Shown here: positions 34,917-35,054 of the stretch, piece after piece
Layout of the letters: every line of letters starts with the position of its first letter
Position numbering within the stretch: position 1 is the stretch's first letter
Assembly (NCBI RefSeq): GCF_041886205.1
Contig: NZ_CP169031.1
DNA from: Escherichia coli
Lineage (GTDB): Bacteria; Pseudomonadota; Gammaproteobacteria; Enterobacterales; Enterobacteriaceae
Reading direction: 5' to 3' (one strand)
DNA: 64,000 bases
Notes under the pieces: generated by a model
The model's database searches: none
What the model was told of the DNA's origin: nothing
What the model saw: only the letters and a program-made list of their open reading frames with translations
Program-made: the position numbers and the translations under genes

Positions 34917-35054
34917 ATGATTGTATTTTTTCAGTTTCTAAGTGCATTTTTAAATGCGCCTGTTCTTAGCCAAGTGCTGGCGATTGTCTTCATCGTGGTT
35001 CTGATATGGTTTTTCAAGTCAGTGATAAACAGAGGCGTGCGCTGGCTTATTTAA
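34917..35054 (+). CDS. small hydrophobic membrane peptide (45 aa)
   Basis: MIVFFQFLSAFLNAPVLSQVLAIVFIVVLIWFFKSVINRGVRWLI with SD GAGGA 8 nt upstream. Confidence 0.3.
   Translation: MIVFFQFLSAFLNAPVLSQVLAIVFIVVLIWFFKSVINRGVRWLI

Follow-up and report, generated by a model that had tools for sequence, protein, structure and literature searches.

We identified a small membrane peptide, encoded by a 45-codon ORF in P1-like phage-plasmid DNA, that is very probably the selected product of its frame, and we propose, with a probability of roughly 45%, that it is the candidate toxin of a new type I toxin-antitoxin-like module. The window, by which we mean the whole 64,000-nucleotide stretch of Escherichia coli DNA that was analysed, holds the ORF in a putative unit of about 600 bp composed of a captured nrdA promoter with two DnaA boxes, a 250-nt conserved leader, the ORF and a hairpin. 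What appears to be new is a small membrane-peptide family containing a candidate type I toxin, together with a correction to the annotation of P1. The features of the unit are as follows.

34560 to 34654, plus strand: segment of the nrdA upstream region (ypaB/nrdA promoter), about 96% identical, from sequence match to E. coli chromosomes
34609 to 34629, plus strand: two DnaA boxes, TTATCCACA (34609-17) and TTATGCACT (34621-29), invariant in all haplotypes
34629 to 34657, plus strand: predicted nrdA-type σ70 promoter, −35 TTGCAA (34629-34), 17-nt spacer, −10 TATTGT (34652-57)
34700 to 34881, no strand assigned: conserved leader block, non-coding on both strands
34728 to 34840, minus strand: predicted antisense RNA of about 110 nt with inferred ends, three hairpins, complementary to the mid-leader
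34763 to 34794, plus strand: hairpin CAUCAAGGAA...UUCCCUGAUG followed by UUUUU, candidate attenuator or terminator, from sequence and conservation
34847 to 34875, minus strand: predicted convergent σ70 promoter, TTGACG (34875-70), 17 nt, TATAGT (34852-47)
34904 to 34908, plus strand: Shine-Dalgarno sequence GAGGA, 9 nt before ATG 34917
34917 to 35054, plus strand: 45-codon ORF for a small membrane peptide, conserved core in codons 1-33
35106 to 35156, plus strand: downstream hairpin CTGGTGAGC...GCCCACCAG with the T-rich tail TATTTACTATTTC, probable 3′ end of the unit

The ORF runs from ATG 34917 to TAA 35054 and translates as MIVFFQFLSAFLNAPVLSQVLAIVFIVVLIWFFKSVINRGVRWLI, coordinates and peptide being exactly those given in the initial annotation of this DNA. 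The 45-aa product has a GRAVY of 1.72, and its best 19-residue Kyte-Doolittle window (2.59, residues 15-33) is of transmembrane (TM) grade and is followed by the basic residues K34, R39 and R42, in agreement with the single TM helix and basic tail described there. The Shine-Dalgarno sequence that it judged plausible (GAGGA, 34904-34908) is conserved in all eight long and short variants of the peptide, which keep an A(A/G)GGA sequence 8-11 nt upstream of the ATG despite differing spacers. We take ATG 34917 as the start because an upstream TTG (34899) is out of frame in P1-type sequences owing to a 1-nt indel. T-rich strands favour hydrophobic codons, and the plus strand at the ORF is T-rich (40% T), so we ran a chance control on 300 dinucleotide-preserving shuffles of the surrounding 2-kb gene-poor stretch. 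In 2% of the shuffles an ORF of 40-70 aa arose that began with ATG and contained a TM-grade window; 0/300 yielded one that also had a Shine-Dalgarno sequence.

The homologous frame is intact in all of the complete P1-like loci collected (69/69), P1, P7 and SJ46 among them; the P1 copy lies on the complementary strand of NC_005856 (85995-86129). One locus has lost its original C-terminus to an IS1 insertion, yet its frame remains 45 codons long by reading into the insertion sequence. The initial annotation had tied its proposal to conservation of the ORF in related elements, and the ORF is indeed kept in about 229 plasmids and phages as well as in distant peptide homologues. We distinguish four long haplotypes: type A (the window), type B (P1 and P7), type C (L016-L019) and type D (L075-L078), the last encoding 42 aa with a 20-nt deletion that alters the tail only. 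These haplotypes diverge by 15-25% at the nucleotide level, and their 33-codon core is free of indels, which fall just before the ATG and after the stop. The pairwise dN/dS of A versus P1 was 0.45, not significant alone, and this weak comparison was replaced by multi-haplotype and long-versus-short comparisons. Across resolved pairs omega ranges from 0.2 to 0.4, with a synonymous excess in B-C (omega 0.22, p = 0.004) and A-C (omega 0.27, p = 0.016).

A quite improbable alternative is that the ORF is untranslated and that what is conserved is an RNA or DNA feature (the leader/antisense pair or promoter elements), in a T-rich sequence that rarely makes stops. The 40% T of the plus strand is consistent with this, as are the 38% of random mutants at P1-level divergence that stay open, the A-B dN/dS, which is not significant, and a leader that is more conserved than the ORF. 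It does not readily explain the synonymous excess in several pairs, the indel-free core or a Shine-Dalgarno sequence at the correct spacing in all variants, and it is further opposed by two classes of short relatives. F1 (33 aa, MVLLLDAFLSAPLLSQCAATVFLLLLIWLKKME) occurs on IncFII-type plasmids of Enterobacter, Klebsiella and Citrobacter, and F2 (32 aa, MLPLYMFLSSPPVSQYAAIVFLLLLIWLKKTE) adjoins parA/korB; both are unannotated and both lie in DNA unrelated to P1. They align gap-free to residues 4-36 of the 45-aa peptide (z = 8-14 over composition-preserving shuffles), and the DNA of these short plasmid peptides is about 50% identical to that of the long form. Identity between long and short forms is 0.59-0.74 at codon position 2, 0.31-0.52 at position 1 and 0.29-0.39 at position 3, and peptide similarity is by far highest in the ORF frame, the other five frames scoring lower. 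This frame-specific 2>1>3 homology appears to be the strongest coding evidence, and it argues directly against an untranslated ORF. The F1 and F1b sequences differ by five synonymous changes and one non-synonymous change. We therefore treat the ORF as a gene whose peptide is very probably the object of selection.

Members of the family share the motif (A/T)-F-L-x-A-P-x-x-S-Q-x-x-A-x-(V/I), one TM helix followed by basic residues, and a conserved Shine-Dalgarno sequence, in a long form of 42-45 aa and a short form of 32-33 aa. When 1.84 billion representative proteins were searched exhaustively with a profile, 7 matched, all from the family itself, and a degenerate-motif scan of 100,044 species genomes gave one chance match, inside an aminotransferase gene. 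Pfam and NCBIfam held no relevant match to any of 6 variants at E ≤ 10; searches of the variants against PHROGs gave chance-level TM matches only, and PADLOC a chance-level TM match only (E = 0.11). Rfam found nothing in 33500-36000 of the window and, on the short-type loci, only an unrelated AgrB, whose detection in L015 next to the record-annotated dqlB served as a positive control. Given these database, profile and motif searches, the family, of which the 45-aa peptide is the founding member, appears to be narrow, previously undescribed and restricted to mobile elements of enterobacteria (plasmids, phage-plasmids and one island). There is a faint resemblance around the A-P motif to Ldr and Fst (p ~0.002-0.02), which is a lead only. 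PGAP calls the P1-type homologue a hypothetical protein (WP_000123562.1) in some plasmids and leaves the window-type ORF unannotated; the P1 reference record is likewise without the ORF.

The surroundings of the relatives yielded several further observations. At the short-type loci we found no recognisable antisense promoter and no shared leader architecture. There, similar repeats able to form hairpins (CTGGACAGAA...GTCCAG) lie on both sides of the ORF, about 200 nt from each other, in a cassette-like arrangement (L013, 2395-2420 and 2610-2640; L079, ~90-120 and 335-360). An unannotated 85-aa membrane ORF (L013, 2681-2938) lies just 3′ of one short-type ORF. The Enterobacter IncFII/IncR plasmid L015 carries a dqlB (DinQ-like)/AgrB type I pair, at 1135-1216 (minus strand) and 1488-1583 (plus strand), about 1 kb from its short-type ORF, dqlB being taken from the record and AgrB from Rfam. 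In haplotype D (L075-L078, 1-5300) a theta gene accompanies the nrdA promoter, leader and peptide unit, about 15% diverged, and the unit adjoins a T6SS cluster (Vgr, VRR-NUC effector and TsiV immunity) and an H-NS paralogue. Plasmids gave no close match to haplotype D, which therefore probably represents a chromosomal island, and the theta homologue and the peptide unit appear to travel together outside P1.

The region around the ORF in the window is a P1-like phage-plasmid; BLAST matches 34300-35111 to P1, P7, SJ46 and hundreds of E. coli and Salmonella plasmids. The minus strand to the left of the ORF carries a DUF968/pdcB-like gene, doc, phd and humD, the phd/doc addiction module adjoining the unit; to the right are hsdM (35587-37149) and then hsdS. 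The stretch between pmgT and humD is the hypervariable region of P1-like elements (PMC9603915), and in the window a type I restriction-modification (R-M) operon takes the place of the pmgT-V side. By homology, the ORF is P1-backbone DNA and not R-M island DNA. The same ORF and leader are found in P1, P7 and many plasmids carrying pmgV or other cargo and no hsd island, and the homology to non-hsd elements runs to 35111, beyond the end of the ORF.

These results refine how the locus was initially described. The ORF does lie at the left flank of the R-M island as far as position goes (hsdM begins at 35587), but it belongs to the P1 backbone. The region called AT-rich has a lower GC content than its flanks, but only modestly so (0.38-0.44 versus 0.46-0.52). 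The statement that no other credible ORFs are present holds for the annotated minus-strand ORFs, which are non-conserved, but not for a 71-aa minus-strand ORF between the 45-codon ORF and hsdM (35238-35453), which PGAP calls as hypothetical protein WP_000466686.1. An in-frame upstream extension of this 71-aa ORF to ~35515 reads ...RAFWKSGIVGAILAMSGC, which resembles a signal peptide and lipobox; no ATG, GTG or TTG start precedes the lipobox-like stretch, and the protein has no Pfam match. This could be a gene for a lipoprotein whose start is non-canonical or damaged.

Some abortive-infection effectors are small membrane peptides, and the initial annotation had suggested such a role; with only 533 bp between the 3′ end of the ORF and hsdM, the peptide might be imagined as an accessory of the adjacent type I R-M island. 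We regard this as very improbable. The same synteny (hot/nrdA promoter) recurs in P1, P7 and haplotypes C and D with pmgV, other cargo or an H-NS gene and no hsd, the backbone homology extends past the ORF as described, and PADLOC returned no match, so the proposed tie to R-M and abortive infection is not sustained.

The window is a recombinant in which a P7-type leader is joined to an A-type ORF. Left of the junction (~34860-34882) the window is identical to the P7-type leader, and the A-type ORF module to its right occurs in other plasmids with a different leader (U4); on this evidence the leader and ORF modules reassort. Matches to P7 lie on either side of the P7 IS903 site (window 33758-34620 versus P7 L002 1383-3311) and overlap at window 34310-34317, so that the window resembles P7 minus IS903. 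The genes hot (DNA polymerase III theta) and lxr, present here in P1, are absent from the window and from P7.

The segment that appears to drive the ORF is of chromosomal origin. It is found in 5425/5426 E. coli chromosomes, where it is annotated as ypaB; nrdA lies downstream on the same strand there, and the captured segment thus points at the 45-codon ORF. By sequence identity, the origin of the promoter segment in host nrdA is established. In the P1 record, 56 homologous bp carry the label "two predicted DnaA boxes". Among five leader haplotypes, the −35 hexamer TTGCAA is invariant and the −10 reads TATTGT, TACTGT or TAGTGT, with positions 1, 2, 5 and 6 kept. The TSS would lie near 34665, which gives the leader its predicted length of 250 nt. 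Homology to nrdA stops at the −10, and the functional NrdR operator of nrdAB consists of boxes 1 and 2, downstream of the TSS (PMC12176259); the operator was therefore not captured. The match to the E. coli nrdAB promoter spans 95 bp at about 96% identity and takes in both DnaA boxes as well as the −35 and the −10 ("box 0") region; in place of the NrdR operator and the nrdA leader, the element has a leader of its own. The P1 copy is much more diverged upstream of the DnaA boxes (~73% over 34533-34620), and the window/P7-type copy is ~96% identical to the chromosome along its whole length (34560-34654; compare L074 1201-1295), which suggests that element and host nrdA promoter have recombined repeatedly. 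The nrdA derivation of the promoter also suggests that synthesis of the peptide mRNA would follow DnaA or replication status.

Downstream of this promoter, the leader block retains 90-99% identity among haplotypes that have diverged by 15-25% in their ORFs, and leader block and ORF co-occur 1:1 in plasmids (229 versus ~227 records). The initial annotation had proposed a search for a cis-antisense RNA, and inside the leader we found a conserved convergent promoter and a structure biased to the minus strand that together predict one, which lends the type I toxin proposal real, though indirect, backing. The promoter hexamers are near consensus (10/12 matches) and invariant in 9/9 haplotypes, the spacer carrying up to 3 substitutions in haplotype D; the site is the one named PupfN by the annotators of P1. 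It is predicted to yield an antisense RNA of ~110 nt that would match the mid-leader with perfect complementarity. The fold of this RNA has a z of −3.2, its consensus structure contains compensatory changes in hairpins 2 and 3, and in 9/9 haplotypes the minus strand is predicted to fold more stably than the plus strand, by 8-16 kcal/mol, with many G-U pairs that would be C-A on the opposite strand. The last hairpin (34755-34739) is followed by AUAUCUAUUAA, a U-tract that is weak or poor in most haplotypes. We rejected the idea that the minus-strand promoter merely serves as the hot leader, as the block is kept at ~99% in the window/P7-type elements, which are without a downstream hot. A palindrome at 34844-34862 (CCAACTATATAGGGGTTGG) overlaps the −10 of the antisense promoter and resembles NrdR box 1 of nrdAB (CCCCCTATATATAGTG); it is probably not an NrdR site, being 2 bp too short and having no partner box.

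On the plus strand, the hairpin at 34763-34794 was not flagged by a simple scan. It might stop transcripts from the nrdA promoter before the ORF, which counts against the type I model; the attenuated plus-strand RNA, of ~130 nt, could overlap the predicted antisense RNA by ~65 nt. In six/six haplotypes the Shine-Dalgarno sequence is moderately occluded, being less often unpaired (P ~0.2) than the transcript mean (0.4), with pairing partners that differ, and the full-length mRNA of these six haplotypes has no conserved fold-back or structure sequestering the Shine-Dalgarno sequence. Three candidates were set aside. The plus-strand mini-ORFs of the leader (MQS* and a 21-codon ORF), considered for mok-like coupling, do not persist in haplotype C; a long-range helix between the 5′ end and the AUG appears in the minimum free energy fold of the window and not in other haplotypes, being specific to the window mosaic; and the 3′ antisense promoters predicted in P1 (P1upfM and P2upfM) are weak and non-conserved.

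At the 3′ end, haplotype C has a compensated stem (CTGGCGGGTA...TACCCGCCAG) at the position of the downstream hairpin. The hairpin is absent from P1 and P7, where homology ends before it. The reference records annotate this locus on the other strand, with upfM, upfN and upfO in P1 (NC_005856; L001 2925-3369) and upf91.3-91.7 in P7 (L002 3009-3639), all on the minus strand and overlapping the captured nrdA promoter and the conserved leader. As these are the sole features annotated here in the two reference records, and PupfN looks real and is conserved, the functional products could in principle be the minus-strand proteins UpfM, UpfN and UpfO or Upf91.3-91.7, the plus-strand ORF being their antisense shadow. 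We find this hardly credible. The upfN/upf91.4 frame encodes 102, 65 or 42 aa from different starts, or is absent, among haplotypes whose DNA is 90-99% conserved, and it runs through the captured nrdA promoter; in the plasmid records that we examined, PGAP omits the upf ORFs, and some of these records have a PGAP call for the plus-strand 45-aa ORF instead. Since their frames are not conserved across haplotypes, we reject the minus-strand proteins as real genes, and upfM/N/O and upf91.3-91.7 are probably annotation artefacts. They share with our reading the same DNA and the same PupfN promoter, here assigned to the antisense RNA; they differ in lying on the opposite strand with non-conserved frames, the conserved frame being the plus-strand ORF.

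Taken together, a hydrophobic peptide, a long predicted leader, a predicted short, stable cis-antisense RNA with a strong conserved promoter and a location on a mobile element beside phd/doc led us to the type I-like module. In this model, transcription would begin near 34665 from the nrdA-derived promoter (DnaA boxes, −35 and −10, no NrdR operator), and the transcript would comprise the 250-nt leader, the Shine-Dalgarno sequence and ORF, and the terminal hairpin. The convergent promoter in the leader would yield the structured ~110-nt antisense RNA, which would pair perfectly with the leader and hold the peptide mRNA untranslated or lead to its degradation. On loss of the element, or on up-regulation of the nrdA-type promoter by altered DnaA status or replication stress, the peptide would be made, insert into the inner membrane and cause damage there. 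From sequence we infer that the two transcripts exist, that pairing of the RNAs represses the mRNA, that the peptide is translated and toxic, and that DnaA exerts control. Our literature search found no study of P1 transcripts or small proteins at this locus and no P1 transcriptome covering it.

A serious possibility is that the ORF encodes a real but non-toxic small membrane protein under an nrdA-type promoter, with the minus-strand RNA an ordinary regulator or an unrelated sRNA and with no addiction or killing. Suitable roles would be a modulator of host membrane proteins, an accessory factor in membrane stress or lysogeny, or a helper in phage exclusion. The coding evidence is identical for this reading, many non-toxic small membrane proteins share the physical properties of the peptide, which counts against the type I model, and no type I toxin family is matched. 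The C-terminal tail is variable and tolerates the IS1 insertion, frameshifts and the 20-nt deletion, so that only a plain TM helix is conserved, and the short relatives are without an obvious antisense partner. In CRISPRi and deletion screens, lytic growth of P1 did not require this region (PMC10695390), which also fits a benign product. What speaks for the toxin instead is the 1:1 linkage with a convergent promoter and predicted antisense RNA, an arrangement typical of toxin control and unusual for benign proteins, and the mobile-element location beside phd/doc.

P1 is among the most used and best annotated phages, and yet the sole conserved frame at this locus is missing from its reference annotation, which instead lists non-conserved ORFs on the opposite strand. 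P1-like phage-plasmids commonly carry resistance genes in E. coli and Salmonella; should the peptide be a toxin, they would have, in addition to phd/doc, a second module for maintenance or stress that is under RNA control, and the captured DnaA-box promoter would show concretely how a mobile element can connect a host replication signal to a membrane peptide. The fullest version of this idea, that P1 and its phage-plasmid relatives carry an unrecognised second addiction or stress module in which a pirated nrdA promoter and antisense control in the leader time a membrane-damaging peptide to DnaA-ATP, we hold to be doubtful. Should the peptide be benign, the annotation is still corrected and a small new peptide family defined.

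Type I toxin mRNAs with a long 5′ UTR targeted by the antitoxin RNA are well documented, with zorO as an example (PMC5397157). The P1-type locus differs from hok/sok, ldr/rdl and zorO/orzO in having no conserved fold-back that sequesters the Shine-Dalgarno sequence and no mok-like coupled reading frame. Nor does it match a curated sequence family of Hok, Ldr, ZorO, Sok, Rdl or OrzO: Pfam and NCBIfam gave no match to models of Hok, Ldr, Fst, TisB, ShoB, Ibs, ZorO or DinQ/DqlB, and Rfam none to Sok, Rdl, OrzO or AgrB in 33500-36000. Features shared with ldr/rdl, zorO/orzO and hok/sok are a hydrophobic peptide of small size (<60 aa) that has one TM segment and ends in a basic C-terminus, a long leader (~250 nt, predicted here) with a complementary short structured RNA (also predicted here), a constitutive-looking RNA promoter, and a mobile-element location beside other addiction modules. 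With tisB/istR-1 and dinQ/agrB, which are under LexA, the locus would share a toxin promoter tied to a host signal of replication or damage, here a copy of the DnaA-regulated nrdA promoter; it would differ from them in responding to DnaA rather than LexA, and in being controlled by a predicted cis-antisense RNA within the leader rather than by a divergent gene.
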